NCBI GenBank assembly: GCA_944388745.1
Contig: CALXJZ010000001.1
Span: 5,976 to 69,975, forward strand
Length of the DNA: 64,000 bases
From: an uncultured Clostridia bacterium
GTDB taxonomy: Bacteria > Bacillota > Clostridia > TANB77 > CAG-508
Direction: 5' to 3'
The notes beneath the pieces are model-generated. The model was not told the origin of the DNA, did no database searches, and was given only the letters and a program-made list of their open reading frames with translations. The stretch's first letter is position 1, and each line of letters opens with the position of its first letter. Made by a program: the position numbers and the translations under genes. Below, in pieces: positions 1 to 16,396 of this stretch.

Positions 1-458
1 TAATATTTAAAATTTTCAAATTCATTATATTCTAATTCTACTTGTAATTCTTGTCCTATACATTTTGTCACTTTTCTAGCTTCTTCAATTGCATTTAATA
101 AACTGCTAGAATATGCTCTGACTAATCCACCTGTACCTAATAATATTCCTCCAAAGTATCTTGTGACAATTATTAGTACATTTGCTAAATTATTTTTTTG
201 CAATATAGATAGCATTGGTTGTCCTGCTGTTCCTGATGGTTCTCCATCATCACTTGATTTCTCTATAATTTGACCTTTTTCTATTACTCTATATGCCATG
301 CAGTTGTGTTTTGCGTCAAAATATTTTTTCTTTGTTTGTTTTATTATATTTTCCGCTTCTTCCACATTTTCTATATAGAATAGATTTGCTATAAATTTTG
401 ACTTTTTTTCTGTAATTTCTGCCTGTACATTTTCTTCAATAGTAATAAATTCTTCCAT
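1..458 (-). CDS. IMPACT/YigZ (UPF0029) family protein, N-terminal part; 3' end runs off the window
   Basis: Manual minus-strand translation from ATG at 456-458 gives MEEFITIEENVQAEITEKKSKFIANLFYIEN...GEPSGTAGQPMLSILQ..IVTRYFGGILLGTGGLVRAY, typical of the YigZ/IMPACT fold. GGAGG RBS overlaps the stop of the upstream gene. Not in the ORF track because it is truncated at the edge. Confidence 0.6.
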   Translation of the reverse strand, partial: MEEFITIEENVQAEITEKKSKFIANLFYIENVEEAENIIKQTKKKYFDAKHNCMAYRVIEKGQIIEKSSDDGEPSGTAGQPMLSILQKNNLANVLIIVTRYFGGILLGTGGLVRAYSSSLLNAIEEARKVTKCIGQELQVELEYNEFENFKY

Positions 459-1772
459 CTACTTGTTTACCTCCAGACCTGCTGTGTAGCCTGTTGAATA
501 TGCTATTTGTAAATTAAATCCTCCTGTATAGCTATCTACATCTATTATTTCTCCTGCAAAATATAGTCCTTTAACTATTTTTGATTCCATTGTTTTTGGA
601 TTTATTTCTTTTGTAGAAACTCCCCCACTTGTTATGATTGCTTCTTCTATTGGTCTAAATCCCTTTATTTCAATTTCATAATTTTTTAATAAATAGACTA
701 ATTTTTTTCTTTCTTCTTTTGTTATTTCATTTATTTTTTTATTTTCTGGTATACTGCTCTTTTCAATTATTACTGGAATTAGTTTCTGTGGCAATAATTT
801 GTCTAGGCTATTTTTAAATTGCTTATTTTTTAATTCATTAAAATCTCTTAATACTCTTTCTTCTAATTTTTCTTCGCTCAATGCTGGCTTTAAATCGATT
901 TTTAACACTATTTTTTTGTTTTTCATTTTTTCTAAATTATTTTTGTATCTTGTTAGATGTGCAGAAGAACTTAATATGATTGGACCTGAAACTCCAAAAT
1001 GTGTAAATATCATTTCTCCAAAATCTTCATATATTTTTTTATTTTTTTCAATATCAGTTATTGTTATTGCAACATTTTTTAGTGTTAATCCTTGCAATTT
1101 TCTACATATTTCTACATCATATGTTTCTAATGGTATTAATGATGGTCTAAGTTCTGTAACTGTGTGTCCAACCTTTTTTGCTAAGATATATCCATCTCCT
1201 GTTGAACCAGTTAATGGATAACTTTTGCCTCCTGTTGCAAGTATTACTTTATCTGCTTTTTCAATTTTTTCTGAAACTCCATTTGAAGTTTTTACTCCAT
1301 CAATTTTTAATTTCTGTTCTTTTTTTGTATTTGCTATTTCTGATTCAGTTTCGCTAACTATTAATTCTGTCACTTTTGTATTATATTCTACCTTTATGTT
1401 TTGCTCTTTAAGCTTTTTGGTAAAGCATTTTAAAACATCTAAGGATTTGTCTGTCACTGGAAATATTCTATTTCCTCTTTCTTCTTTTACTTCTAATCCT
1501 TCTTCTTTTAGAAATTTTATAATATCTTGGTTTGTAAAGTTTTGAAAACAACTATATAAAAATTTTCCATTTGTTGGAGTGTTTTCAATAAATTTTGACA
1601 TATCTAAAGAAGATGTAATATTACATCTTCCTTTTCCTGTTATTAATAATTTTCTTCCTAGTGATGGCATTTTTTCTATTAGTGTTACTTGATGACCTTG
1701 TTTACTCGCAGTTATTGCTGCCATCATTCCTGCTGGTCCTCCACCTATTACTATTACTTTCATTTTACTCAC
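459..1772 (-). CDS. HI0933/BaiN-like NAD(P)/FAD-dependent oxidoreductase (aminoacetone oxidase family flavoprotein)
   Basis: N-terminal Rossmann motif VIVIGGGPAGMMAA. 437 aa, typical of the HI0933 family. TAG stop at 459-461. Confidence 0.75.
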   Translation of the reverse strand: MSKMKVIVIGGGPAGMMAAITASKQGHQVTLIEKMPSLGRKLLITGKGRCNITSSLDMSKFIENTPTNGKFLYSCFQNFTNQDIIKFLKEEGLEVKEERGNRIFPVTDKSLDVLKCFTKKLKEQNIKVEYNTKVTELIVSETESEIANTKKEQKLKIDGVKTSNGVSEKIEKADKVILATGGKSYPLTGSTGDGYILAKKVGHTVTELRPSLIPLETYDVEICRKLQGLTLKNVAITITDIEKNKKIYEDFGEMIFTHFGVSGPIILSSSAHLTRYKNNLEKMKNKKIVLKIDLKPALSEEKLEERVLRDFNELKNKQFKNSLDKLLPQKLIPVIIEKSSIPENKKINEITKEERKKLVYLLKNYEIEIKGFRPIEEAIITSGGVSTKEINPKTMESKIVKGLYFAGEIIDVDSYTGGFNLQIAYSTGYTAGLEVNK

Positions 1773-1821
1773 ATTCTTTTATTTTGCCTTACGTTTTATA
1801 TTTTTGATCTCTACTTCCTAA

Positions 1822-2811
1822 TTAAGAATCTTTTGCACTATCCTTTTTTCCTTTTGTTGTAGTTTTTTTAGCTGTTGTTTTAGCAGCTGTTGTTGATTTC
1901 TTAGCAGATGTTTTTGTTGTTGATGCTTTCTTTGTTGTTGATTTCGTTGTATTTGATTTACTTGCTGGTGATTTTTTTGCTGCTGTTGTACTTTTAGTAG
2001 TTGTCTTTTTTGTAGTCTTTCTAGTTTTTTCTGCCTTTTTAACTTCTGGTTGTTCTTCTTTAATCTTATTATCTATAACATCTTTTTCTTTATTGTTTTC
2101 TTCTGGTTCATCTCCATTTAAATATCCAATATCATTTGCTTGTGCTTCTTTTATATATTGATCTAAATTATCTTCAAAGAAAAATTCTATTGCTGGTTCA
2201 TCTTCATCTTTTGTTTCTGTTCTGTTATCCATATTTGCATTTTCTTCAATTAGATTTGACTCATTCTCTTTTTTGTCTGGCTCTATTGTTTCTTGTGACA
2301 TATTGTTTATTTCTTCGCTTTTTTCTGGTTCGTCAAAGAAAAATTCTATATCATTATTATTCTTTTGTTGCTCCTCTTGCTCTTCTACATCTTCTTCATC
2401 CACATTATTCTCTTCTATATCTTCTTCTATATCTTTTTCTATACTTTTTTCGTTTTCTTCTATATATTTTTCATCTTCTATTTCATCATATTCTTTATTA
2501 TTTTCTAATTCTTGAATTTTTTCATTGTCCATATATGTTTCTATGTTATATGATTGATCATCTAAATTTGAATTTTCTTGCTCTTTTTTGAAAATATCTA
2601 CATATTCATCTTCTTTTTTCATTTCTTTTTTCTTATTCTTCATTTCTTGTTTTGCCAACTTTGTTGCTTCTTTTCTTTCTTTTTCAATTCTTCTTTCTTC
2701 CGCTCTTTGGCTGCTACCACTAAAAACCAAAATGGCAACAATTAGAACAATTAAAACCAATAAAACTATTACTACACTCATTTTTACTATCATTCCTTTC
2801 TCAATGTACAA
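1822..2811 (-). CDS. hypothetical membrane-anchored protein with acidic low-complexity repeats and a Lys/Thr/Ala-rich basic tail
   Basis: N-terminal TM helix (VVIVLLVLIVLIVAILVF), long D/E-rich middle, C-terminal TTKKxTTK repeats. No recognisable catalytic motif. Start may be the internal Met (MSVV...). Confidence 0.4.
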   Translation of the reverse strand: MYIEKGMIVKMSVVIVLLVLIVLIVAILVFSGSSQRAEERRIEKERKEATKLAKQEMKNKKKEMKKEDEYVDIFKKEQENSNLDDQSYNIETYMDNEKIQELENNKEYDEIEDEKYIEENEKSIEKDIEEDIEENNVDEEDVEEQEEQQKNNNDIEFFFDEPEKSEEINNMSQETIEPDKKENESNLIEENANMDNRTETKDEDEPAIEFFFEDNLDQYIKEAQANDIGYLNGDEPEENNKEKDVIDNKIKEEQPEVKKAEKTRKTTKKTTTKSTTAAKKSPASKSNTTKSTTKKASTTKTSAKKSTTAAKTTAKKTTTKGKKDSAKDS

Positions 2812-2939
2812 ATCTAGTTGGAATTGTAATTTTTTTCAACCTTATCCTTTGTTTTTAATTAAAAATTTAATATCTATTATTTATATATCACATTTCAACA
2901 TTTTTTTCTATATATTTATATGATATTTTTATCTTTTAA

Positions 2940-4175
2940 CTATTTTTCCATAAATTCAATTGCTTTCATTATTCCCAATTTCCCATATTCATAAGTTAGT
3001 CCACCTTGCATATATGCAATATATGGCTTTCTTAACGGTCCATCACAACTAAGTTCTATTGTTGAACCTTGTGTAAATGTACCTGCTGCCATAATAACTT
3101 TATCTTCATATCCACCCATATCTCCTGGATATGGTATTATATCTGAATCAATTGGTGAACCACTTTGAATTCCTTGACAAAACTTAATTAGTTTATTTTC
3201 TTCTCCTAAATGAACTGTTTGTACTATATCTGCTCTTTTTTCATCATATTTTGGTTCTACATTATATCCTAATTTTTCTAATATGCAACTCGCAAAAACT
3301 GCTGTTTTTAAGCTACTTGCAACCACAGTTGGTGCAAAAAATAGCCCTTTTATAAATAAAGAATTTTGATTTAATGATGGTCCTATCTCTTTTCCTATTC
3401 CTGGTGCTGTTAATCTTTCTGCACATAATTTAATTAATCCTTTTTTTCCAGAAATGTATGCTCCAGATGTTGCAATTCCTGCTCCTAAATTTTTCATTAG
3501 AGATCCTACTATGATGTCTGCTCCTACTTCAATTGGTTCTTTTTCTTCTACAAATTCTCCATAACAGTTATCTACCATTATTATTACTTCTGTATTTACT
3601 TTTCTAATTTCTTTTATTATTTTTTCTATTTTATCAATATTTATACTTTTTCTCGTTGAATATCCTCTTGACCTTTGGATTTCCACAAGTTTCACATCAT
3701 TTGTGGATAATCTTTCTCTTATTTTTTCATAATCAAAATCATTTTCTACTAAATCTATTTGTTCATATTTGATACCATATGCTTTTAAAGAACTTTCGCT
3801 TTTTTCTTTTCCTATCCCAATTACTGTTTGTAATGTATCATATGGTTCTCCTGTTATACTAAGCATTGTGTCATTTGGTCTCAATAACGCTGATAGCGTA
3901 ATTGCTAATGCATGTGTTCCTGAAATCAGTTGTGCTCGAACTATGCTATCTTCTGCTTTGAATATATGACTATATATTTCTTCTATTTTGTCTCTTCCTG
4001 GCTCATCTATTCCATATCCTGTATATGAATTTAGATGTTGCTCTTGTAAATGGCATTCTTGGAATGCGTCTAATACTTTTTTACTGTTTATTTCGCATAT
4101 CTTGTCTATTTCTTTTATTATTGGTGTTATTTCTATTTCTACTTTTTCTTTTACTTCTTGTAAGTTTTGTTTCAT
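2940..4175 (-). CDS. PLP-dependent Cys/Met-metabolism enzyme, YnbB / 'aluminium resistance protein' (Met gamma-lyase-like) family
   Basis: 411 aa; sequence pattern and length match the YnbB family (PF06838-like). RBS AGGAAG precedes the ATG. Confidence 0.7.
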   Translation of the reverse strand: MKQNLQEVKEKVEIEITPIIKEIDKICEINSKKVLDAFQECHLQEQHLNSYTGYGIDEPGRDKIEEIYSHIFKAEDSIVRAQLISGTHALAITLSALLRPNDTMLSITGEPYDTLQTVIGIGKEKSESSLKAYGIKYEQIDLVENDFDYEKIRERLSTNDVKLVEIQRSRGYSTRKSINIDKIEKIIKEIRKVNTEVIIMVDNCYGEFVEEKEPIEVGADIIVGSLMKNLGAGIATSGAYISGKKGLIKLCAERLTAPGIGKEIGPSLNQNSLFIKGLFFAPTVVASSLKTAVFASCILEKLGYNVEPKYDEKRADIVQTVHLGEENKLIKFCQGIQSGSPIDSDIIPYPGDMGGYEDKVIMAAGTFTQGSTIELSCDGPLRKPYIAYMQGGLTYEYGKLGIMKAIEFMEK

Positions 4176-4200
4176 TAAAATTTTCTTCCTTTCTTCGTTA

Positions 4201-4260
4201 TGGTCAGTTTGGGGACAGGTTCGGACTAACCATTTTGGGTTACTTTGGGGACGCCACTTT
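4201..4260 (+). repeat. Family-A dispersed palindromic repeat, copy 1 (TGGTCAGTTTGGGGACAGGTTCGGACTAACCATTTTGGGTTACTTTGGGGACGCCACTTT)
   Basis: Near-identical copies at 22556-22624 (inverted) and 44952-45018. Contains GGTCA..TGACC inverted arms and two T(T)GGGGAC(A/G) cores. Lies 25 nt upstream of the ynbB-like start. Confidence 0.8.
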
Positions 4261-4470
4261 ATTTTCTGTATTTTCGCTTATTATTTTACAATAATTCTCC
4301 TTTTTTTTCAAGGAATTAGGTACTTTAATTTATGCAATTTAAAAATTGAGGAAGTATTTGAATTTATACTTTCTCAATTTTTAATAGACTAATTGTTATT
4401 ACATAAATTACATTATACTATCTTTTAGGTCTGTCCCTTTTGTTTCATTTTGAAACGATTTGGCACGTCC

Positions 4471-7400
4471 CTAAATGACGAATTTCTTGATTAAGAATAC
4501 TCCTCCAGCTATTGTGATTAAAACTATTCCACCTAACATGAAATATGTTCTTGTTGCTCCTGTGCTTATTGATATCATTACTGGTGCATCATCTATGTCA
4601 TCTTCTCCTTCTTTTTGATTGTCTGGTGTTGAGTCTTTGTCTGGTAAATCATAATCATTATCATCTTCTGATATTTCTGCTATGTTTGTCATTACTCCCA
4701 TGTTGTTTTCATTGTTTATCCATGTTAAGACTACTTCTACTTCTGTGTATTCTCCTGGTTGTAATAGGATATCTTGTGGCAATCTTGTTGATATTACATT
4801 ATTTCCTTCATCTGTCCATCCAGGGTTATCTGCTGGGTCAAATCTTAATCCTTCTGGTATATAGTCTGTTATTTCTTTTACATATCCAGGTATGTCCCCT
4901 TCATTTGTTACTCTAATTGAGTATCTGAATTTGACTGTTACTTGGTTTAGTTTCTTTCTATGTAATTCTACTTTTACTATTTCTTCTGGGTCGTCATATG
5001 GCTGATGTCCTGTTACTGTTACTGTTTCTTTTCCGTTTTCTATTACTATTGCTTCTGTTACCCATTTTCTTAATGCTAAGTCAAATTCTTTTACTATTAC
5101 TTTTTCGAAGTCATCATCATCTTGTTGTCCTGGTATGTATTCTCCTGTTTCATCATCTTTATATCCTGGTAAGTTTTCATCATTTGGAAGTTCTACATTA
5201 TCACTTTCTGAGTCTCTATCTGTTATTTCTTCATGATTATCATCTTGGTATTCTGTAATGTCTGCAATATTTGTTATGTTTTCGTTTGTTGGTGCACTTT
5301 CTATTACTCTACACATTACAGGTACTTCTTGATATGATAATTCATATGCACCTTCTTCGTTTATTACAGGTTTGTTAATTAAACTATTTTCTAAATATCT
5401 TGTTGTTAATGTTCTTCCATCTTCAGATACTTCCCATCCATATTGGTCATTGAATTCTCCGTCAACATATTCTAAGTATGGTGGTAAATGGTCTTTGATT
5501 TCAGCTGCATAACCATCTATATCGCCTTCATTATATACTCTTAACATGTATATCACTATGTCATTTTTTTGTACTAATACTGGTTCTTTTGTATGGTTAT
5601 ATATTGCTGTTGTGATTAAGTTTCCTTCTTCATCTTCTGTATTTAATAATGATGTGTCTACTACCGGTTCTCTTGTATATGAACCATCTTCATTTCTTAG
5701 ATATTCATCTTCTTCTATTGTTTGGTCATTACTTACTGCTATTATGAATTTTCTTAGTGCTAAGTCAAATTCTTTTACTATTACTTTTTCGAAGTCATCA
5801 TCATCTTCTTGTCCTGGTATGTATTCTCCTGTTTCATCATCTTTATATGTTGGTCTATCTTCTCCTTCTGGCTCTTCAAATCCTCCATCTGGAGTTGAAT
5901 CTCTGTCATCTGTTTCGTCTCCATTTTTGTCTGCATCTTCTGTTATTTGTGCTAAATTTGTTATTTTCCAATCTGACCTTGCATTGTCTTTTACCTTACA
6001 TGCTATTTGTACTTCTTTATAGTATAATGGTTCTTCTTCATTTACTCTTGTTTCGTCAAATGCTTCTATTAGGTTTTGTCTTTCTTCTGTTTCTTTTTCT
6101 TTTGATAAGTAATCTGTTGTTACTCTATTTCCTTCTATTGTCCATTCATATTGTTGATTTATTAGATGGTTTGGTAAAAATTCTAATTCGTCTGGTAAAT
6201 AGTCTGTTATTTCTTCAGCATATCCTGAAAGTTCAGACTCGTTATATACTCTTATTGTATAGATTACTGTATCTCCTTTTCTTACTTCTACTGGCTCTTT
6301 TGTGTGATTATATGTTGCTGTTGTTATTAAGTTTCCATTTTCATCTTCTGTATTTAATATTGATGCATCTACTACTGGTGCTCTAGAATATGAACCATCT
6401 TCATTTCTTAGATATTCATCTTCTTCTATGTTTTCATCTCTACTTACTGCTACAATGAATTTTCTTAGCGCTAAGTCAAATTCTTTCTTAACATTATCTA
6501 CTGTTATTGTTATTTTACCTGTTGTTTTGTCTATTGTTACTGGAACATTTTCTGTTATTGTTGCTCCTGTGTTGTCTTTTACTACCATTATTGTGTTTTC
6601 TGTATCTATTACATATACTCCGTTTTGTATTGTCTTTGCTACACTTAGTTCGATACTTCCTGTAAATTTATTGTATCCATCTGGTGCGCTTGTTTCTGTT
6701 ATTGTATATGTATCTAGCGTTGTTGTATCTGTTATTTGGAATGTTCCTAAGTTTAATATTCCATTTGAATCTGTCGCTTCTCTATCTTCTCCATTTACAT
6801 TGAATACTGCTCCTGATAGTGGTGTTTCTGTTTCACTATCTACCTTTACTATTTCTAGTTCATAATCTCCTACTATTTTTTCATTGTCTATTTCTATTGT
6901 TATTCTTCCTGTTGTTATATTTATTGTTACTGGAATATTTTGAGTTATTGTTGCTCCTGTGCTATCTTTTACTACCATTGTTGTGTTTTCTGTGTCTATT
7001 ACATATACTCCGTTTTGTATTGTTTTTGCCACACTTAGTTCGATACTTCCTTCAAATTTGTTATATCCTTCTGGTGCACTTGTTTCTGTTATTGTATATG
7101 TATCTAGCGTTGTCGTATCTGTTATTTCAACTGTTCCTAAGCTTAGTATTCCATTTGCATTTGTTGCTTCTCTATCTTCTCCATTTACATTAAATACTGC
7201 TCCTGGTAATACTGTTTCTGTTCCTTGTTCTTTCTTTACAATTTCTACTACATAGTTTCCTTCTATCTTTTCATTGTCTACTGTTATTGTTATTTTACCT
7301 GTTGTTTTGTCTATTGTTACTGGTATGTTTTGTGTTATTTCTGTTCCTTCACTATCTTTTACTACCATTGTTGTGTTTTCAGCATCTATTACATAGTTTT

Positions 7401-10400
7401 CATTATCTAACTTTTTATCTACACTTAATTCTATACTTCCATCAAATTTGTTGTATCCATTTGGTCCTGTTGTTTCTTTTATTACATATGTATCTGGTAT
7501 TTCTGTGTTTGCTATTCCAAATGTTCCTAAGTTTACTATTCCGCTTGCATTTGTTGCTTCTTTGTCTTCTCCATTTACATTGAATATTGCTCCAGTTAGT
7601 TTTGCTCCTGTTTCTCCGTCTTGTTTTACTAACTCTATTTCATAGCTTCCTTCTATCTTTTTGTTTGGTACTGTTACTGTTATCTTTCCATTTTCTAAGT
7701 TGGCATTTACTTTTCCTTCTGCTAATCCTGTTCCTTCTACATTTTTTAATTCTATGTTATTTACTACATATTCTCCATCTTGTATTCCTTTTGTTACTTC
7801 TAGCTCTACACTATTAAATATTTTGTTGTATCCTTCTGGTGCTTCTATCTCTTCTATTTTTATTGTCTCTGTTCCTTCTTCTGTTATTTCTATTCCTTCT
7901 ATTTCTATTTTTCCCTCTGCATTTGTTCTTTCTGTCTTTTCTGTTCCATCTGCTAGTCTTACCTTAAACTCTGCACCTTCTAATACCTTTTCTTCATTTT
8001 CTTGGTCTACCTTTAATATTTCTAAGTTGTATCCTCCTGCTATCTTTTCATTTTCTACTGTTATTGTTACCTTACCTGTTGTTACATCTAATGTTACTGA
8101 AACATTTTCTGTTATTGTTGCTCCTGTGCTGTCTTTTACTACCATTGTTGTATTTTCTGTGTCTACTACATAGTTTCCATTTTCTAACTTTTTAGCTACA
8201 CTTAGTTCTATGCTTCCTTCAAATTTGTTGTATCCATTTGGTCCTGTTATTTCTTTTATTACATACGTATCTGGTGTTTCTATGTTTGTTATTGTAAATG
8301 TTCCTAAGTTTACTATTCCACTTGCATTTGTTGCTGTCTTATCTTCTCCATTTACATTGAATACTGCTCCTGATAGTTTTTCTTCTGTTTTTCCATCTTG
8401 TTTTACTAGCTCTATTTCATAGTTTCCAGTTGCTTTATCTAATATTAGTTTTTCAAAATCGTCATCATCTTGTTGTCCTTTATAGTAATAATTTGAATCT
8501 GCTAAATTTGATTGGTTGTTATTTCCTGTGTAATTTTCCATATTAGTTTGATTTACACTTGGTTCTGTCTCTGGTTCTGAATCTCTATCTAGCCCTTCTT
8601 GGTTTGTTATTGTAACATTACTCTCTGCATCGTATTCTTCCGCAATCCATGCAACATTTGTTAATACTTTTTCTCTTTCTCCTGGCTGTTCTACTACTTC
8701 GCAAGTTATTTCTATTGTTTCTTTGTCTAATTCTCCTCCTGTATATTTAGCTAAATTATCTGTATTGCCTGCTTTTCTAATTAAGTTTACTGTATTTGTT
8801 TCCTCATCATAGCTTTCTAATTCAAAATTTCCACTTACTACTTGTGAGAATTTTAATCCCTCTGGTAATTGATCTACTATTTTTGTTGCTCTTCCTTCTT
8901 TTTCTCCTTCATTATATATTGTAATTTCATATGTTACTATATTTCCTGTTTCTACTTTTACTGGATCTTTTCTATGTTTATATGTCGCTGTTGTTCCATT
9001 TTCTAATGTTGTTGTATCTATATTTGGTATTCTTGTATTACTTCCTGTTAATGTTTCTCCATTTACTTTTGTAATATATTTTCTAAGTGATAAGTCAAAT
9101 TCCTTTTTTACATTATCTACTGTTATCGTTATTTTCTGAGTTGTTTTATCTATTGTTACTGGTATATTTTGTGTAATTTCTGTTCCTGTGCTATCTTTTA
9201 CTACCATTGTTGTGTTTTCTGTATCTACTACATAGTTTCCATTTTCTAATTTTTTGGCTACATTTAGTTCTATACTTCCGTCAAATTTGTTGTATCCATT
9301 TGGTCCTGTTGTTTCTTTTATTACATATGTATCTGGTCTTGTTATATCTGTTATTTCTACTGTTCCTAAACTTAAAATTCCACTTGAATTTGTCGCTGTT
9401 TTATCTTGATTGTTTACATTAAATACTGCTCCCGATAGTTTTTCTCCTGAAACTCCATCTTGTTTTACTATCTCTATTTCATAGCTTCCTTCTATCTTTT
9501 TGTTTGGTACTGTTACTGTTATCTTTCCATTTTCTAAGTTGGCATTTACTTTTCCTTCTGCTAATCCTGTTCCTTCTACATTTTTTAATTCTATGTTATT
9601 TACTACATATTCTCCATCTTGTATTCCTTTTGTTACTTCTAGCTCTACACTATTAAATATTTTGTTGTATCCTTCTGGTGCTTCTATCTCTTCTATTTTT
9701 ATTGTCTCTGTTCCTTCTTCTGTTATTTCTATTCCTTCTATTTCTATTTTCCCCTCTGCATTTGTTCTTTCTGTCTTTTCTGTTCCATCTGCTAGTGTTA
9801 CCTTAAACCTTGCATCTTCTAATACCTTTTCTTCATTTTCTTGGTCTACCTTTAATATCTCTAATCCATATTCTCCTGCTATCTTTTCATTGTCTACTGT
9901 TATTGTTATTTTACCAGTCGTTTTGTCTATTGTTACTGGTATATTTTCAGTAATTTCTGTTCCTTCGCTGTCTTTTACTACCATTGTTGTATTTGCAATA
10001 TCTACTACATATCTTCCATTTTCAATTTTTTTTGCTACATTTAATTCAATGCTTCCTGTAAATCCATTGTATCCACTTGGTGCTGTTACCTCTTTTATTA
10101 CATAGCTATCTCGTGTTGAAGCATTTGTTATTTGTATTGTTCCTAAACTTACTATTCCGCTTGAATTTGTTGCTGTTTTATTTTGTCCATTTACACTAAA
10201 TATTGCTCCAGTTAGTTTTGCTTCTGAAATTTCATCTTGTTTTACTAGTTCTAATTCGTATTCTCCTTGTAAATTAGGTATTTCAATCTCTAATTTTTCT
10301 GGTATTGAAATTTCTTCTTTTTCTGGTATTACTACTGGTTGCTCATCACCATTTGTGTTTGACGCCCATAAAGTAAAGTTCGTTTTATCATAATCTATAT

Positions 10401-11478
10401 TTATCTCTAAACTTATCGTTTTTTGTATAGTTTGTTCTAAAGGTAGAGAAATATAGAAATCCTCTCCTATTAAATCTTCAATTGTTGTTCCTGCTGACAC
10501 TTGGTTTTTATTTTCATTTAGTAAAATGTAGTCATTTGTCTGTGCATTGTTTATTTTTGTAATAAATTCTAAATCAAATGCTTTTATATTATTTTTTGTA
10601 ATATGTATTGGTCCAATTATTGTTCTTGATCCTTGTATTTCATAATCTAATTCCTGTGTATCTATTTGTATTGGTGCTTTTTGTGCATTTGTAATATTGT
10701 CATATTCTGGTGCTTTTTCTTTCGCAATTCTTATTAGGTATTTATATAAAACTTCCGCTTGTACTTGTCTTTGTTGCCCTTCTGGTCTATTTAAATCTGA
10801 CAAAGTTGTATATGTTATTTTATTTTCTGTATAATAAAGCCATCCTGAATTACCTGTTTTATCATATATATTTCCGTTTTCCCCATAATTCGTAAAATAC
10901 CATAATGCTGCTTGTTGTACTGCTTCAATGTCGTCATTTGTTAATGAATATTGATAAGCACTACTATATATTCCTGCTGCATTTAATAAGTTCTCTTTAT
11001 ATTCTTCATTTGAAACTCCATCATAATAAAACATATCTAATATTGCTAATATTGCACTATATTGACTTATGGTTGTCCCATCATCTAGCTCTATTGTGCC
11101 TTCCACTAAGCCTCTTAATATTTCATTTTCTTTTGCAATATCTTCTTTTTCTTGTTTCATATCATAAAATACATCATACGTTGCTCTTTTATCTACATTT
11201 TGAAATCCTACTCCTGCTTTTAAGCAATATATATTATTTTCAGAGTATATATTTGATGTTGCATTTTGATATTCAATTAAATTCCAAATTTTATCTCCTC
11301 CTGAACTCGGATTTCCTATTGCATATCCTATCCCATCACTTTTAAGTTCAGTTATTCCAATGTATTTTGGATTGCTTGATGAATCTGTTGCCAATGATAT
11401 CGCATTTAAGCTAATTATTAGCATTAAAATTAAACTCACAAATACTACGATCACTGTTTTCAAACTTTTCATCTTCAT
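4471..11478 (-). CDS. giant cell-surface adhesin: signal peptide, N-terminal thioester (TQXA-like) domain, tandem SpaA-like prealbumin-fold isopeptide domains and DUF11/CARDB-like repeats, C-terminal TM anchor
   Basis: 2335 aa. Signal peptide MKMKSLKTVIVVFVSLILMLIISLNA. Cys (NIYCLKAGVGF) plus VQQAALWYF resembles the thioester Cys...TQxA(I/L)W motif. At least 8 repeats of G(P/S)NGYNKF.GSIEL.VAKK (SpaA-like). Four repeats of DLALRKF/W...YNHTKEPV...GD.V.Y.IRVYNEG...GYA.EI.D.LP (DUF11-like). Ends ...GGIVLITIAGGVFLIKKFVI without LPXTG. Confidence 0.85.
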   Translation of the reverse strand: MKMKSLKTVIVVFVSLILMLIISLNAISLATDSSSNPKYIGITELKSDGIGYAIGNPSSGGDKIWNLIEYQNATSNIYSENNIYCLKAGVGFQNVDKRATYDVFYDMKQEKEDIAKENEILRGLVEGTIELDDGTTISQYSAILAILDMFYYDGVSNEEYKENLLNAAGIYSSAYQYSLTNDDIEAVQQAALWYFTNYGENGNIYDKTGNSGWLYYTENKITYTTLSDLNRPEGQQRQVQAEVLYKYLIRIAKEKAPEYDNITNAQKAPIQIDTQELDYEIQGSRTIIGPIHITKNNIKAFDLEFITKINNAQTNDYILLNENKNQVSAGTTIEDLIGEDFYISLPLEQTIQKTISLEINIDYDKTNFTLWASNTNGDEQPVVIPEKEEISIPEKLEIEIPNLQGEYELELVKQDEISEAKLTGAIFSVNGQNKTATNSSGIVSLGTIQITNASTRDSYVIKEVTAPSGYNGFTGSIELNVAKKIENGRYVVDIANTTMVVKDSEGTEITENIPVTIDKTTGKITITVDNEKIAGEYGLEILKVDQENEEKVLEDARFKVTLADGTEKTERTNAEGKIEIEGIEITEEGTETIKIEEIEAPEGYNKIFNSVELEVTKGIQDGEYVVNNIELKNVEGTGLAEGKVNANLENGKITVTVPNKKIEGSYEIEIVKQDGVSGEKLSGAVFNVNNQDKTATNSSGILSLGTVEITDITRPDTYVIKETTGPNGYNKFDGSIELNVAKKLENGNYVVDTENTTMVVKDSTGTEITQNIPVTIDKTTQKITITVDNVKKEFDLSLRKYITKVNGETLTGSNTRIPNIDTTTLENGTTATYKHRKDPVKVETGNIVTYEITIYNEGEKEGRATKIVDQLPEGLKFSQVVSGNFELESYDEETNTVNLIRKAGNTDNLAKYTGGELDKETIEITCEVVEQPGEREKVLTNVAWIAEEYDAESNVTITNQEGLDRDSEPETEPSVNQTNMENYTGNNNQSNLADSNYYYKGQQDDDDFEKLILDKATGNYEIELVKQDGKTEEKLSGAVFNVNGEDKTATNASGIVNLGTFTITNIETPDTYVIKEITGPNGYNKFEGSIELSVAKKLENGNYVVDTENTTMVVKDSTGATITENVSVTLDVTTGKVTITVENEKIAGGYNLEILKVDQENEEKVLEGAEFKVRLADGTEKTERTNAEGKIEIEGIEITEEGTETIKIEEIEAPEGYNKIFNSVELEVTKGIQDGEYVVNNIELKNVEGTGLAEGKVNANLENGKITVTVPNKKIEGSYEIELVKQDGETGAKLTGAIFNVNGEDKEATNASGIVNLGTFGIANTEIPDTYVIKETTGPNGYNKFDGSIELSVDKKLDNENYVIDAENTTMVVKDSEGTEITQNIPVTIDKTTGKITITVDNEKIEGNYVVEIVKKEQGTETVLPGAVFNVNGEDREATNANGILSLGTVEITDTTTLDTYTITETSAPEGYNKFEGSIELSVAKTIQNGVYVIDTENTTMVVKDSTGATITQNIPVTINITTGRITIEIDNEKIVGDYELEIVKVDSETETPLSGAVFNVNGEDREATDSNGILNLGTFQITDTTTLDTYTITETSAPDGYNKFTGSIELSVAKTIQNGVYVIDTENTIMVVKDNTGATITENVPVTIDKTTGKITITVDNVKKEFDLALRKFIVAVSRDENIEEDEYLRNEDGSYSRAPVVDASILNTEDENGNLITTATYNHTKEPVEVRKGDTVIYTIRVYNESELSGYAEEITDYLPDELEFLPNHLINQQYEWTIEGNRVTTDYLSKEKETEERQNLIEAFDETRVNEEEPLYYKEVQIACKVKDNARSDWKITNLAQITEDADKNGDETDDRDSTPDGGFEEPEGEDRPTYKDDETGEYIPGQEDDDDFEKVIVKEFDLALRKFIIAVSNDQTIEEDEYLRNEDGSYTREPVVDTSLLNTEDEEGNLITTAIYNHTKEPVLVQKNDIVIYMLRVYNEGDIDGYAAEIKDHLPPYLEYVDGEFNDQYGWEVSEDGRTLTTRYLENSLINKPVINEEGAYELSYQEVPVMCRVIESAPTNENITNIADITEYQDDNHEEITDRDSESDNVELPNDENLPGYKDDETGEYIPGQQDDDDFEKVIVKEFDLALRKWVTEAIVIENGKETVTVTGHQPYDDPEEIVKVELHRKKLNQVTVKFRYSIRVTNEGDIPGYVKEITDYIPEGLRFDPADNPGWTDEGNNVISTRLPQDILLQPGEYTEVEVVLTWINNENNMGVMTNIAEISEDDNDYDLPDKDSTPDNQKEGEDDIDDAPVMISISTGATRTYFMLGGIVLITIAGGVFLIKKFVI

Positions 11479-11710
11479 GCTCCTTTTTTTATAATATATA
11501 TATTATTATAACATTTATATCTATATATATCTTTTGGATATTTTTTACTTATATCATCTAATTTTTACGCTTCTACCATTTTTACGCTTTATTACATTAA
11601 TATTAATTTTTCTTGATTTTTTTGCAATCTTATACATTTTTACAAATCATAATTGTCAAATCCTTACGGATTATTAGGCTAGAAACAAATTTATTAGAAC
11701 AAAAAAAAAC

Positions 11711-11730
11711 GAGTATAACTCGCTTTTTAA
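11711..11730 (-). terminator. rho-independent terminator downstream of topA
   Basis: Minus-strand read AAAAAGCGAGTTATACTCGTTTTTTTTTG: a short GC stem followed by a 9-U tract. Confidence 0.55.
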
Positions 11731-11742
11731 TAAGGTTGATAA

Positions 11743-13796
11743 TTATTTTTTATTTGATACTTTCTTACTTGCTTTTTTATTAGTTTCTTGTAAATCTTTA
11801 TTCTCTTCAGGGTTCCATTTTTCCCCCTTTTTAGGCTTATTCCATGAAATATAATCACAAGATTTAGGATTATTTTCACAAATATAGTAATTTCTTCTTC
11901 TTTTCGTTTTTCTAACTTGTACTTTTCCTCCACATTTAGGACATGGAACATCTATTGTTTCTACAATTGGCTTTGTATTCTTACATTCAGGATATCCTGG
12001 GCATGCTAAGAATTTTCCATATCTTCCATATTTATATACCATCATTCTACCACACTTTTCACATGGTATATCAGATACTTCATCAACTAATTCCACATGC
12101 TCTAACTCTTTTTCTACTTTTTCTATTTCTTTTTCAAATGGTCCATAGAATTCTCTAATCATTTTTTTCCATGGTTCTTTTCCTTCTGCAATTTCGTCAA
12201 ATTCATTTTCTATTTTGGCGGTAAACTCTACATTTATTACATCACCAAAATTTTCTGTCAATAATTTATTTACTATTTTGCCTAGTTCCGTAGGGACTAA
12301 TTGCTTTTGTTCTTTTTCAATATATCTTCTTTCCAATATTGTTGTAATTGTTGGAGAATACGTACTTGGTCTACCTATTCCTTTTTCTTCTAACGCTTTT
12401 ACTAGGCTTGCTTCTGTATATCTTGGTGGTGGTTCAGTAAAGCTTTGTTTAGGATTTATTTTTTCTAATTTAACCTCCTGTTTTTCTTTTAAATCTGGTA
12501 ACATTCCTTCTACTTCTTGTTCTTTTTGGTCTGTACCTTCAACATAAAGTTTCATAAATCCTTCAAATTTTATCCTTTGCCCATTTGCTTTAAATGTATA
12601 TTGATTTGCATCAATTGTTACAGCCATTGTATCGAATATTGCTGCTGCCATTTGACTTGCCATGAATCTATTATATATTAATTTATATAACTTATATTGG
12701 TCTTTTGTTAATGATTCTTTTATTGCATCTGGTTCTAAATCACTATATGTTGGTCTTATACCTTCATGCGCATCTTGTGAGTCCTTTCCAGTTTTGTAAT
12801 ATCTATTTTCATAGTATTTTTCACCATATGTTCCTACAATATGTTCTTTTGCCGCTTTTCTCGCTTCTTCTGAAATTCTTGTTGAGTCTGTTCTCATATA
12901 TGTAATTAGACCAACTGTGCCTTTTTCTGGTATTTTTACTCCTTCATATAGTCCTTGTGCAATTGACATTGTCTTTTTTAAAGTAAATCCTAATTTTCTT
13001 GATGCTTCTTGTTGCATTGTGCTTGTTGTAAACGGTGGTGCTGGTGTTCTTTTTCTTTCTCCTTTTTTTACTTCTTCTATTATATATTTTGCTTTTTCTA
13101 TATCTTTTAATATTTTATCTACTTCTTCTTGTGAATGTATATCTAATTTTTTGCCATTTTTTCCATAAAATCTTGCTTCAAAACCTTTTTTGCTTTCTTC
13201 ATCTAATAAATCTACATATATGTTCCAATATTCTTCTGGTATGAATTTTTCGATTTCTTCTTCTCTGTCAACAATCAATTTTACAGCAACTGATTGCACT
13301 CTTCCTGCTGATAATCCTCTTTTTACTTTTTTCCATAGAACAGGACTCATTTTATATCCAACAATTCTATCTAATACTCTTCTTGCTTGTTGTGCATCTA
13401 CTAGGTTTGTGTCTATTTCTCTTGGATTTTTTATCGCATTTTGTACTGCTGTTTTTGTTATTTCATTAAATGTAACTCTTGACATTTTATCTTTATCTTC
13501 TGATAAAATATATGCTAAATGCCATGCAATTGCTTCTCCTTCACGGTCAGGGTCAGTTGCAAGATATACTTTTTTTGCTTTTTTTGCTTCTTGTTTTAAT
13601 GATTTTATTAAATCACCTTTTCCTCTTATATTAATATATTCAGGTTCAAAATCATGTTCTATATCAATACCCATTTTTGATTTCGGTAAATCTCTTATAT
13701 GTCCCATTGAAGCTAATACTTTTGTACTTCCTCCTAGGAATCTTTTTATAGTATTTGCTTTTGCTGGTGACTCAACTATTACTAATTTATCTGCCA
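11743..13796 (-). CDS. topA: DNA topoisomerase I
   Basis: Toprim N-terminus LVIVESPAKANTIKRFLG, the active-site Tyr region, and C-terminal Cys4 zinc-ribbon repeats (CEKCGRMM...CPGYPEC, CPKCGGK...C). The ORF track's start at 13860 is an RBS read-through; the true ATG is about 13796 with a GGAGAGAA SD. Confidence 0.9.
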
Positions 13797-13943
13797 TAAA
13801 ATTCTCTCCTTTTGTATGTTGATTAAATCTCAAACGAAGTTCGCCACTGTGCGACGTCAAAATTGTAATTATTTTTCAACTACTTCTACTTATAGTATTC
13901 TAGACTAATTTCATACAATTTGCAAGTATTTGAAATAATTTTA

Positions 13944-14267
13944 TTATATTTGAATAGCTTTTTTCCATAAATCATATACAATATCTTCTACACTAATTGG
14001 AGTTACTTCATTTTCTTTAAATAATGTTAATATTTCTTCAATCTTTTTTTCATCATTTGATAAATATGTAATTTCTTTTTCTTCTGTTTTTGTATCGTTA
14101 TTTTTATACTCTGTTTTTATTACTTTAATTCCAAATCTTGCTTTTTCACCTTTCATTATTTCATCTTCATTGATTATTTTATAATATTCTAATTTAATTG
14201 GATAATTTATCCCAGCCTCCTCTAGTTCTTCTTTTTTTATAAAAGTGCTTGTATAAAAAATTTTCAA
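13944..14267 (-). CDS. hypothetical small protein
   Basis: 107-aa ORF with coding-like composition. No recognisable motif. Confidence 0.4.
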   Translation of the reverse strand: MKIFYTSTFIKKEELEEAGINYPIKLEYYKIINEDEIMKGEKARFGIKVIKTEYKNNDTKTEEKEITYLSNDEKKIEEILTLFKENEVTPISVEDIVYDLWKKAIQI

Positions 14268-14533
14268 TTGCTTGCCCCTTTCTCTTTTGTTTTTGTAAGC
14301 CTTGTAAATTATATGCTTGCCTTTTAATAATACTATGATTTTCTAAGGGTTGCAAGAACTTTTCATCGCAAGTTTTGCTATATTTTTATATAAAATTACA
14401 TATTTTGATTTTCTTTTTATCTTTTTTATTTTTTTCTACAAATTTCTCATTCAATTATAATATTTAATTTTTAAAATAATTTTCTATTATTTTTATACAT
14501 AATATATTGTGTCGTAAAATTTCATATTGTTTT

Positions 14534-15061
14534 TTATTCTTTTAATTCTTTTTTATATATTTTATAATCATTCATATTTTCTTCTACTAAATCCCAGAAT
14601 TTTTTTGAATGATTCATTTCTCTTAAGTGGCACATTTCATGTAATACCACATATTCAATTACTTTTTCTCCTTTGTTTGCTAATTTTAAATTTATTGTAA
14701 TATTTCTTTTACTAGAACAACTTCCCCATGCATATTTGATATCTTTTATTCTAACTTTATTTGGCATCACGTATAATGTCTTAGAATATTTCTCTATACT
14801 TTTTTCTATTACAAATTTTAGTCTTTCAACATCTTTTGCTTCTATTTTTTCTTCTTTTTTTGGCTTCTGTTCATATCTTTTGACATTTTCATAAATCCAT
14901 TTTGACTTTTTATTTATAAATTCTTGTATGTATTTGTCTTTTATTCTTATTGGTGCTTTAACTATTACTTTTCCTTCTTTTATATGTATATACATGTTTT
15001 TTATTTTTGATTTTACCATTGTATATGGTATTTTTTCTCCATTATATTCTATTTCATTCAT
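14534..15061 (-). CDS. DUF45/YgjP-like (M48-related) zinc metallohydrolase
   Basis: C-terminal VLHEMCHLREMNHSKKFWDLVEE is the HExxH...H..FW signature of the YgjP/DUF45 family. Likely start at the internal Met with an AGAGGAAGA SD; the ORF track extends to 15082. Confidence 0.7.
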   Translation of the reverse strand: MNEIEYNGEKIPYTMVKSKIKNMYIHIKEGKVIVKAPIRIKDKYIQEFINKKSKWIYENVKRYEQKPKKEEKIEAKDVERLKFVIEKSIEKYSKTLYVMPNKVRIKDIKYAWGSCSSKRNITINLKLANKGEKVIEYVVLHEMCHLREMNHSKKFWDLVEENMNDYKIYKKELKE

Positions 15062-15110
15062 TATTTCTTTTCTTCCTCTCAAAACAAAGCTGACTGTAAT
15101 TATTTTTCAA

Positions 15111-16322
15111 TCACTTTTTAAATTGTACTAAATCATCCACATCCATCTTAGTTGCTCTTGTAACTGCATTATATCCATATTTGTTTTTCAATTGGTCTAT
15201 TACCTTGTCTAGTTTTTCTTGTTTTTCATTTTTATTTTCATTAAATAACGAAATCTGTTCATCTTTTTTATCTGTCAAATTATCTACTCTAACTCCCACA
15301 AGCCTTATTTCTTGTCCTTTATGATACATTTCGTGTAATAATTCTTTTGCAGTCATATATATTTGTTTTGTTGTATCAGTTACTTCAGGTAGCTTTTTTT
15401 GATGTGATGTATCTTCAAAGTTTTTGGTTCTTAATTGAACATTAACTGTACTTGCAAATAATTTTTCTTTTCTTAATCTGTATGCTACTTGTTCTGATAT
15501 CGTTAAGACTATTTCTTCTAATTTATCTATATCTGAAATATTTTTAGGTAATGTTACTGAATTTCCTATGCATTTAGGTTTTTCTGGCAAGTATTTTACT
15601 TCTGATGAATCTATTCCATTTGCATATTCCCACATTAAAATTCCATGTTTTCCAAATTTCTTTTCTAGTTTTGTTTTATCAGTTTTCGCTAGGTCTCCTA
15701 TTGTTTTTATTTGCATGTTATATAGTTTTGGGACTGTTTTCTTTCCTAGCATGAATAATTCTGAAACAGGTAATGTCCACATTTTTTGCGGTATTTCTTC
15801 TTTCCACAAGGTGTGTACCCTATCTGGTTTTGTAAAGTCTGATGCCATTTTTGCAAGTAATTTATTGTTTGCAACTCCAACATTTACTGTAAATCCTAAT
15901 TCTTCTCTAACTCTTCTGTTTATTTCATATCCTTTATTTAGTAAGGTATCATTTCTTAAATAATTTGTCATATCTAAGAAGCATTCATCTATACTGAATC
16001 TTTCTATTTTGTCTGTATATTCTAATAATAATTGATATAACTGATTTGAATATTTACGGTATATTGGAAAGTTTGAAGGAAATATTTTTAGGTTTGGACA
16101 TTTTATTCTTGCTTGGTATATTGTATCTGCCGTTTTTACTCCACATTCTTTTGCTTTCATACTTTTTGCTAAAACAATTCCTGACCTTTTGCTTTCATCT
16201 CCTCCAATTATTGCTGGTATTTGTCTTATATCTATTTCGCTTCCTTGTTTTAGCATTTCTACTGCTGTCCAACTTAAAAATGCATTGTTTACATCTACAT
16301 GCAATATTTGTTTTTCCATCAA
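15111..16322 (-). CDS. dinB: Y-family DNA polymerase (DNA polymerase IV-like)
   Basis: ILHVDVNNAFLS ... SIDECFLDMT ... palm/finger motifs of the UmuC/DinB family; about 400 aa. Confidence 0.8.
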   Translation of the reverse strand: MMEKQILHVDVNNAFLSWTAVEMLKQGSEIDIRQIPAIIGGDESKRSGIVLAKSMKAKECGVKTADTIYQARIKCPNLKIFPSNFPIYRKYSNQLYQLLLEYTDKIERFSIDECFLDMTNYLRNDTLLNKGYEINRRVREELGFTVNVGVANNKLLAKMASDFTKPDRVHTLWKEEIPQKMWTLPVSELFMLGKKTVPKLYNMQIKTIGDLAKTDKTKLEKKFGKHGILMWEYANGIDSSEVKYLPEKPKCIGNSVTLPKNISDIDKLEEIVLTISEQVAYRLRKEKLFASTVNVQLRTKNFEDTSHQKKLPEVTDTTKQIYMTAKELLHEMYHKGQEIRLVGVRVDNLTDKKDEQISLFNENKNEKQEKLDKVIDQLKNKYGYNAVTRATKMDVDDLVQFKK

Positions 16323-16367
16323 ATCACCTTCTCTCCGATATTTAATTTAGTATTTATTAGTCACTTT

Positions 16368-16396
16368 ATTATAGAATATTTGTTTGTCTTTGTCAA
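16368..16396 (-). promoter_or_regulatory. consensus sigma-A promoter for the dinB-like gene (TTGACA, 17 nt, TATAAT)
   Basis: Minus-strand read TTGACAaagacaaacaaatattcTATAAT about 45 nt upstream of a GGAGAG SD and the ATG. No GAAC-N4-GTTC LexA box seen. Confidence 0.6.

Follow-up and report, generated by a model that had tools for sequence, protein, structure and literature searches.

A predicted thioester-domain fibrillar adhesin with an LPXTG-less C-terminal tail and recombining stalk repeats in uncultured gut Clostridia

Background

Adhesins of the thioester, isopeptide, ester (TIE) type have been studied mostly in pathogens, and sortase anchoring is almost universal among them. The subject of this report is a gene at 4471..11478 on the minus strand of a 64-kb window, the window being the whole stretch of 64,000 nucleotides that was analysed (contig CALXJZ010000001.1 of assembly GCA_944388745.1, from an uncultured Clostridia bacterium). 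The gene is a single open reading frame (ORF) of 2335 aa, with the stop codon within these coordinates, and it probably encodes a chromosomal TIE-type fibrillar adhesin of an uncultured low-GC gut Clostridia bacterium, with an anchored stalk, a reactive head and recombining repeats.

Two classes of thioester domain (TED) have been described. Class I TED adhesins, among them SfbI, FbaB and Cpa of Streptococcus pyogenes and CpTIE (Cpe0147) of Clostridium perfringens, carry a head with a reactive thioester on a stalk of cross-linked repeats and capture their ligand covalently, a design that is also predicted for the window protein; they are 'almost always' LPXTG-anchored (PMC4450167). Unlike the window protein, they have a head topology without a β-sandwich insert, and the stalk of Cpe0147 is built of Thr-Gln ester domains. 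The class II TIE proteins, represented by BaTIE of Bacillus anthracis (BasC/BA5258, 6FWV), EfmTIE86 of Enterococcus faecium (6FWY) and SaTIE of Staphylococcus aureus, resemble the window protein in having a signal peptide, a TED with a β-sandwich insert and a CnaB-type stalk, as well as a [YFL]CΦζ cysteine motif and a Gln/Trp motif on an adjoining helix (PMC6194298). The Gln and Trp of this second motif, TQxxΦW, lie on a helix beside the thioester, and the bond forms without them. The bonding Gln is located on β-strand Q, which in class II comes after the β-sandwich insert and returns to the head in a loop, and only the Cys and the bonding Gln are universally conserved across TEDs (PMC6194298).

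The stalk domains also have described counterparts. In CnaB domains the isopeptide triad consists of a Lys in the first strand, a catalytic Glu and an Asn or Asp in the last strand, and CnaB and CLIPPER triads have been tabulated together (PMC12617251). CLIPPER is the new name of DUF11, of which the crystal structure 9IFR is a CnaA-like isopeptide domain with the triad Lys715-Asp748-Asn806 (PMC12617251).

The window protein is unlike characterised TIE proteins in five ways. Its class II-like head is very divergent, with no PDB-level sequence similarity to class II TIE proteins and with QQxxΦW in place of TQxxΦW; its predicted Cys-Gln pair is more widely spaced, at about 295 residues against about 170-205 in class II; its stalk, which is far longer, mixes CnaB with added CLIPPER domains; a conserved transmembrane (TM) module, probably a membrane anchor, is found instead of LPXTG; and it belongs to a large syntenic family of uncultured gut commensals.

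Results and discussion

The N-terminal head resembles class II thioester domains

The protein begins with a Sec-type signal peptide (aa 1-30, 11389..11478, minus strand), recognised in the translation by a basic N-terminus, a hydrophobic core and the junction ISLA/TD. The start of the signal peptide is alike in all 120 homologues listed, and the N-terminal 370 aa are common to all of them. The signal peptide is followed by the upper lobe of the TED (aa 31-270, 10669..11388, minus strand), which contains YC85LK, with the Cys85 codon at 11224-11226, and QQ188-189AALW193, with the two Gln codons at 10912-10917. A β-sandwich and a long β-hairpin follow (aa 271-404, 10267..10668, minus strand), and these carry the candidate Gln380 in EQPVV (codon 10339-10341). 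Pfam TED (PF08341) matches aa 83-252 at 24.2 bits against a cut-off of 22, a narrow margin.

Conservation of the candidate residues was assessed in an alignment of 114 sequences, comprising 113 representatives at 50% identity and the window protein, and including two misaligned non-members. Cys85 is kept in 112 sequences, Q188 in 102, Q189 in 110, W193 in 112, Q380 in 110 and P381 in 108; the two sequences that lack Cys85 are the misaligned ones, which are unrelated giant proteins. C85, Q188, Q189, W193 and Q380-P381 are invariant among 105 non-redundant family N-termini. Cys85 is the sole Cys of the head, and its motif, Y84-C85-L-K, fits the [YFL]CΦζ pattern of TEDs. The TQxxΦW motif is present as the variant Q188-Q189-A-A-L-W193, with Q instead of T as its first residue. 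Another glutamine, Q240, was rejected as the thioester partner, being kept in only 50 of the 114 sequences and sitting in a helix.

An AlphaFold2 (AF2) model of aa 31-400, built from a 21-sequence alignment, had a mean predicted local distance difference test score (pLDDT) of 90.6. It shows an α/β head leading into a β-sandwich and then into a long β-hairpin of 18-19 residues, and in its secondary structure Q380 lies at the tip of this terminal hairpin. When the model was compared with the PDB using Foldseek, the sole significant matches were the class II TEDs 6FWV and 6FWY (E ~2e-10, probability 1.0). The modelled fold thus suggests that the head is a class II-like thioester domain with the β-sandwich insert architecture.

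A sequence-only reading of this DNA had likened the Cys of NIYCLKAGVGF and the Gln motif AVQQAALWYF to the Cys/Gln pair of thioester domains. Both motifs were located, at aa 82 and aa 186, respectively, and Cys85 holds as the predicted cysteine partner. The Gln of AVQQAALW is better explained as part of the accessory TQxxΦW motif, because in the class II topology the bonding Gln comes from the late strand (PMC6194298), and sequence conservation and the model together make Q380 most likely the bond-forming Gln paired with Cys85. Two representatives have Lys at position 189 and both retain Q380, which fits a dispensable motif Gln and a bonding Gln on the late strand (PMC6194298).

Twelve stalk domains carry predicted isopeptide triads

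Domain boundaries were obtained by motif mapping and pairwise comparison, and gave the order signal peptide (1-30) – TED (31-404) – A1 B1 A2 – D1 – A3 B2 A4 A5 A6 – D2 D3 D4 – TM tail, in which A and B are SpaA/CnaB domains and D are DUF11/CLIPPER domains, all encoded on the minus strand. The first three SpaA domains are A1 (aa 405-534, 9877..10266), B1 (aa 535-663, 9490..9876) and A2 (aa 664-791, 9106..9489). They are separated by the 678-nt D1 (aa 792-1017, 8428..9105) from A3 (aa 1018-1147, 8038..8427), B2 (aa 1148-1276, 7651..8037), A4 (aa 1277-1406, 7261..7650), A5 (6871-7260) and A6 (6487-6870). B1 and B2 are the two copies of a near-identical repeat, and A5 and A6 are the site of a copy-number difference between strains. 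D2 (5776-6486), D3 (5092-5775) and D4 (4585-5091) make up a conserved membrane-proximal base (4585..6486).

Pfam SpaA (PF17802) detected eight stretches totalling 184 bits, six of type A and two of type B, in agreement with the at least eight SpaA-like domains that had been proposed. The A domains are 128-130 aa long with mutual identities of 60-80%. The B domains represent another SpaA-type unit with about 40% identity to A, and B1 and B2 share 96% of their amino acids. A K/E/N triad is present in all eight, with K in [EI][LI][VL]K, E in xE[VIT][TSE][AG]P.GY and N in [TI][VI].N.K; in A1, which Pfam assigns to SpaA, these are the K of ELVKQD, the E of IKEVTAPSGY and the N of TVDNEK.

The count of at least four DUF11-like domains was likewise borne out. 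Pfam DUF11 (PF01345) scored 45.8 bits, with its best stretch at aa 838-951 in D1, and the NCBIfam DUF11-type repeat model TIGR01451 scored 67 bits. The SpaA and DUF11 scores, like that of TED, exceed the respective Pfam cut-offs. Two of the four domains are significant in Pfam, and all four can be aligned with one another, with invariant K9 (FDLxLRK), D78 (D.LP) and N150 (TN.A.I). As in 9IFR, from the Acinetobacter silvestris adhesin B9T28_05395, D1-D4 have a Lys in the first strand, an Asp, and an Asn in the penultimate strand; the AF2 model of D4 places the triad Asn on the penultimate strand, the position it has in CnaA folds. Unlike 9IFR, D1-D4 are larger, at 169-237 aa against about 120, and have long acidic insertions. 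On the strength of these triads, all twelve stalk domains are predicted to be self-cross-linked by isopeptide bonds.

The C-terminal tail is conserved across the family

The C-terminal anchor (aa 2299-2335, 4474..4584, minus strand) consists of the last β-strand, PVMISIS, a TG hinge, the TM helix ATRTYFMLGGIVLITIAGGVFLI and the basic end KKFVI. No LP.TG occurs anywhere in the window protein, so the earlier statement that LPXTG is absent and that the protein ends in a TM helix and KKFVI was correct. Its further suggestion that this absence is unusual has to be qualified, as the feature is conserved across a large family and is not peculiar to the window gene. The tail was compared among 119 distinct sequences, that is, the window protein and the homologues listed. 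The last 39 residues are of equal length and near-identical sequence in 118 of these, following the pattern DAPV-[ML]-[LI]-[ST]-[VI]-x-T-G-xxxx-Y-F-x-L-G-xxx-L-x-T-x-A-G-G-xx-L-I-K-K-[FY]-V-[IL].

A HMMER search with D4 and the tail as the query against 1.84 billion cluster representatives (50% identity clusters) returned 3501 matches with E<=1e-3, of which 641 clusters reach E<=1e-30. Among the 150 top-ranking matches, most extend to the extreme C-terminus. Eight tail-bearing proteins without a BLAST-detectable TED were checked, and no clearly different head family was found among them: five have YCLx and QQxxΦW (P0178, P0209, P0227, P0253 and P0264), and the remaining three have an FCxx motif (P0218, P0226 and P0231). 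No curated Pfam or NCBIfam model matches the tail module. In an AF2 model of D4 and the tail (pLDDT 83.8, about 65-70 over the tail), IDDAPVMISIS forms the final β-strand and leads through T-G into one helix that continues to the end.

CbpA of Clostridioides difficile (CD3145), a clostridial adhesin with NVQTG at its C-terminus, has a similar tail layout, in which a hydrophobic segment and then a basic tail come after xVxTG. CbpA belongs to the collagen-binding MSCRAMM type and is not a TED protein, and the two are likened by the layout of their tails. The housekeeping sortase does not cut CbpA in vitro, and its attachment may rely on other means (PMC4155245, PMC5569036).

In one related metagenome-assembled genome (MAG), at locus L053, an 805-aa protein with Listeria-Bacteroides repeats and an LPNTG signal is encoded a few kb downstream of the TED adhesin gene (13979-16396, plus strand). 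Its signal scores above the TIGR01167 cut-off (19.7 against 15.9 bits); therefore, a canonical LPXTG-type sortase substrate is encoded in at least one related MAG, and it looks unlike the adhesin tail.

An older domain duplication contains a probably homogenised B segment

In a self-diagonal scan, an offset of 1839 nt was by far the strongest in the gene. It corresponds to a duplicated A-B-A block (7271-8420 and 9110-10259), in which 1150 nt contain 144 mismatches, giving 87.5% identity overall and 72-100% per 50 nt. Identity is concentrated in the B domains, which differ at 11 of 387 nt (7651-8037 and 9490-9876; 97.2%) and include an exact run of 279 nt (7633-7911 and 9472-9750). The flanking A domains are less alike (A3 and A1, 80.5% of nt; A4 and A2, 84.4%), and the DNA identity of neighbouring A copies is about 79-86%. 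The 102-aa protein stretch that had been quoted as repeated does occur exactly twice, at aa 568 and aa 1181, 613 aa apart.

The sequence-only reading had taken these repeats as kb-scale, near-identical and the product of a recent 1.84-kb tandem duplication. Near-identity holds for one B domain (387 nt, 97.2%) and not for the 1.15-kb A-B-A block. D1, the 678-nt domain between the two A-B-A copies, has no partner at offset 1839, and for this reason the gene lacks an intact 1.84-kb tandem unit. The pattern is that of an older A-B-A duplication in which the B segment either stayed identical or became so. Within one protein the B copies are 92-96% identical, against 81-91% between orthologues, which supports homogenisation. 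Two antisense ORFs on the plus strand (7661..8173 and 9500..10105), which had been said to translate identically, do so for their first 99 codons and diverge afterwards. Their translations are Ser/Phe/Thr-rich reverse-strand sequences with no sign of gene status, and the two are by-products of the B1/B2 repeat and not genes.

Stalk length differs between strains

A close relative of the locus was found on an ENA metagenome assembly contig (L078), which encodes P0001 and has the same arrangement, with topA upstream and the Met-γ-lyase-like gene downstream. The two adhesin genes are 99.76% identical over the first 4.6 kb of the gene. The L078 allele has seven SpaA domains and the window eight, a difference of one 390-nt A unit. 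Over nt 1-338 the last A unit of L078 is identical to A5 of the window, and from nt 325 onwards it is identical to A6; the BLAST offsets are concordant. This junction reads as a clean in-frame unequal crossover that produced an A5/A6 hybrid. Copy-number variation, which had been predicted, is therefore seen between strains, with the 390-nt A unit (A5/A6) as its unit and not the 1.84-kb segment.

Comparison of L078 with window positions 1-16000 gave 99.8% identity across topA and the adhesin gene's 5' 4.6 kb. Identity is about 95.4-95.8% over the stretch that starts at the A5/A6 junction and takes in D2-D4 and the Met-γ-lyase-like gene; beyond this gene it is about 92% for the next 1.2 kb and then 99.5%. 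Since identity falls and then returns to 99.5%, the locus also appears to be a mosaic of inter-strain recombination, consistent with an imported segment whose breakpoint lies in the repeat array.

Length and domain content also vary among homologues in the protein database. Close homologues are 2203, 2208, 2235, 1984, 1825, 1821, 1718, 1723, 1595 and 1334 aa long, and orthologues have 2-9 SpaA domains, with D1 present, absent or relocated. Among same-locus orthologues, identity to the window sequence is 96-99% for TopA, 89-97% for D2-D4 and the tail, and 70-74% for the TED head, a gradient from a constrained base to a rapidly diverging exposed tip. For D2-D4 taken without the tail, the range is 90-97%.

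In these respects the gene resembles the periscope proteins SasG, Aap, Rib/Alpha C and Sgo0707, whose repeat number shifts between close strains by homologous recombination (PMC9704523). A strain-variable repeat number was found, eight against seven SpaA domains. Tandem repeats of very high DNA identity were not found in the gene: periscope repeats are usually adjacent and nearly identical in DNA, whereas the adjacent A copies here are mostly 79-86% identical and the near-identical B1 and B2 are non-adjacent, 1839 nt apart.

The adhesin gene is a stable chromosomal gene of its clade

One genome per GTDB species was scanned, which yielded 249 relatives of the head, and 77 loci were kept. All 77 belong to MAGs or metagenomic scaffolds of uncultured Clostridia, Bacillota or Clostridium, one source being Clostridium sp. 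CAG:343. Two loci came from each of several MAGs, and some loci hold two tandem copies. The Met-γ-lyase-like gene lies directly 3' of the adhesin gene in more than 40 loci, and topA lies 5' in the closest ones. Given these conserved flanks, the adhesin gene is a stable chromosomal gene of the clade. An identical copy of the window protein was absent from the assembly collection searched.

Tandem pairs of family genes are found in L050 (3512-9547 and 9845-15280) and L033 (2-982 and 1322-6721). In BRZ_NR bin75, a long form beside topA (L006) and a short form beside the Met-γ-lyase-like gene (L009) are on separate contigs. These arrangements suggest a two-gene locus that was cut to one gene in the window.

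Alternative readings of the head, the repeats and the tail

Several observations weigh against the proposed TIE-type adhesin. Of the two thioester models, Pfam TED passes, barely, and NCBIfam TQXA_dom reaches only 15.6 bits against a cut-off of 30.4. The Foldseek TM-scores against solved TEDs are low, at 0.3-0.38. A PDB sequence search with the head as a single sequence gave nothing relevant, and a search with the 21-sequence head profile gave only coronavirus Nsp15 noise (E>0.2). In the stalk, the D4 model matches generic Ig folds equally well, and the CLIPPER structure 9IFR is a weak match (rank 18, E 1.8e-3, TMt 0.50), so that the bond in D1-D4 is a prediction; PDB sequence searches with D4 alone and with a D1-D4 profile gave nothing relevant. 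For the anchor, T-G hardly varies and the tail is laid out in three parts, as sortase signals are. The marginal domain scores, the QQxxΦW motif and the low TM-scores could mean that the head has a TED fold without a reactive thioester, and that the protein is an ordinary non-covalent adhesin or a structural surface fibre. This is improbable, as Cys85, the lone head Cys, is lost only from the two misaligned non-members, and Q380-P381 is similarly conserved, unlike further Gln residues, for example Q240; in TEDs, no residue other than the Cys and the bonding Gln is conserved universally (PMC6194298). We consider it still less probable that the repeats and the difference between seven and eight domains arose as artefacts when short metagenome reads were assembled across repeats. 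MAG contigs are the source of the related sequences, and the 279-nt exact run in B1 and B2 exceeds typical k-mers. However, the same A-B-A-D-A-B-A order is present in two independent assemblies (P0001 and P0002), of which P0001 is 99.8% identical over 4.6 kb. The A5/A6 junction of L078 falls in a stretch with only 14 shared identical bases, which makes a mis-join in a k-mer graph implausible, and differing in-frame domain counts are found in many orthologues from other samples.

The fate of the tail is less certain than the nature of the head. We lean towards a retained membrane anchor over sortase processing. The alternative is a non-canonical sortase signal, [ST][VI]xTG followed by a hydrophobic segment and KK, with cleavage after the Thr and covalent linkage to peptidoglycan, as for other TIE proteins. 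In its favour, ATRTYFMLGGIVLITIAGGVFLI and then KKFVI supply the hydrophobic segment and basic tail that follow such a motif, none of the 118 equal-length sequences departs from T and G, and the residue in front of them varies like the X of LPXTG. TG is found in 106 of 113 representatives, and TIGR01167 scores 14.2 bits on the window tail, narrowly below its cut-off of 15.9, matching from the G onward. Clostridial sortases do use non-LPXTG motifs such as (S/P)PXTG (PMC4155245). Against this, position 2 lacks Pro, and in the model the residues before TG are the last β-strand of the folded D4, with no linker; in some family representatives the Thr is replaced by L, P, S or A. Five other family tails have no TIGR01167 match, whereas the LPNTG neighbour in L053 passes. 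A scan for sortase-like ORFs with TLxTC was negative in the 64-kb window and up to 10 kb from the 77 related loci, and SrtB fails to cut the analogous NVQTG of CbpA in vitro (PMC4155245, PMC5569036). Conservation of the TM residues and of the IKK[FY]V[LI] end is likewise uncharacteristic of signals that are cleaved and discarded. Sortase processing is accordingly possible but doubtful, and other fates, such as shedding by another protease, may make up the remainder beyond the membrane anchor and sortase readings. A more speculative and rather unlikely proposal is that the last CLIPPER domain, the T-G hinge, the TM helix with its fixed L..T.AGG..LI and the IKK[FY]V[LI] end form an undescribed dedicated anchoring or sorting signal of this clade of uncultured gut Clostridia, one that is always coupled with a TED head. 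Such a signal may be recognised by a non-canonical sortase, a fibre-shedding intramembrane protease or a membrane scaffold.

Proposed mechanism and significance

With the tail taken as a retained membrane anchor, the adhesin would be exported via Sec and held at the cell by the TM helix at its C-terminus and the basic KKFVI end. A rigid stalk of four CnaA-like DUF11/CLIPPER domains and eight CnaB-like SpaA domains, each self-locked by a predicted Lys-Asn isopeptide bond, would lift the N-terminal head through and past the cell wall. The class II-like head is predicted to hold an internal thioester between Cys85 and Gln380, the latter at the tip of the β-hairpin that follows the β-sandwich insert, with QQAALW alongside; a nucleophile on a ligand, from the host or from a microbe, would react with this thioester, and a covalent link would result. 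Stalk length shifts between strains through unequal homologous recombination of the repeated domain-coding units, and conversion would homogenise repeats within the gene. Divergence is rapid in the exposed head, and conservation is strong in the membrane-proximal base and the anchor.

The analysis points to a large family of TIE-type proteins among uncultured Clostridia that are gut commensals. Its genes are syntenic, and a genome often has two or more of them; the proteins share an LPXTG-less, probably membrane-bound anchor, a fast-evolving head and a stalk remodelled by recombination. Should the thioester be active, these little-known bacteria would bind their targets covalently, and the divergence of the head relative to the base would amount to a naturally occurring set of specificities. 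As protein-ligation tools, both the head and the isopeptide domains may be of interest. A known adhesin design would be extended to a new clade and a new anchoring mode; current understanding is not overturned.

Gene start and genomic setting

The ORF has two candidate start codons. A ribosome-binding site, AAAGGAG, lies 7 nt 5' of the ATG at 11472 and just 1 nt 5' of the ATG at 11478, and the 99%-identical homologue P0001 begins with MKSLK, that is, at the second Met of the window ORF. Because of this spacing and the start of P0001, the second ATG, at 11472 (MKSLK...), is preferred as the functional start, and the product is probably 2333 aa long. A terminator-like hairpin is located 3' of topA (11704..11728, minus strand), from which it follows that the adhesin gene is its own transcription unit. 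A promoter scan scored no better than shuffled sequence. Cyclic di-GMP riboswitches occur upstream of C. difficile adhesin genes. None was detected in the window by an Rfam scan at gathering thresholds, which found zero families in the entire 64 kb, not even a tRNA.

The neighbours of the gene in the window are housekeeping genes, namely Met-γ-lyase-like, topA, dinB-like, gdpP-like and gidA/trmFO-like genes and an SNF2 helicase gene. Cargo of a conjugative element was rejected in view of the position of the gene between topA and the Met-γ-lyase-like gene, the latter being directly downstream in more than 40 species-level loci. A pilus subunit was also rejected, the gene standing alone among housekeeping genes, without LPXTG and without an adjoining sortase. 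Nearly all window ORFs of at least 150 aa are on the minus strand, and GC skew is strongly negative, with exceptions at about 38-42 kb and 56-58 kb, where plus-strand genes sit. Three ORFs of 329-501 aa, all on the minus strand, have no Pfam match: 1822-2811 and 19221-20354 at E<=1e-3, and 61498-63003 at E<=1e-5.

Other probable surface proteins are encoded in the window. A 455-aa protein (56452-57819, plus strand), in which G5, SH3-like and N-acetylglucosaminidase domains are combined, probably hydrolyses the cell wall; G5 is a stalk domain of periscope-type proteins. Two adjoining genes on the minus strand (31283-34636 and 34950-38153) encode proteins of 1117 and 1067 aa with leucine-rich repeats and a C-terminal type I dockerin, and the repeats of the 1117-aa protein are of the BspA type (PF13306). 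These two proteins suggest cohesin-dockerin surface display in the host organism. In four homologues of the adhesin (P0061, P0062, P0066 and P0069), a dockerin (PF00404) follows the head and replaces part of the β-sandwich region. These homologues appear to link the TED adhesin family to the same cohesin-dockerin system that the leucine-rich repeat dockerin proteins of the window suggest.

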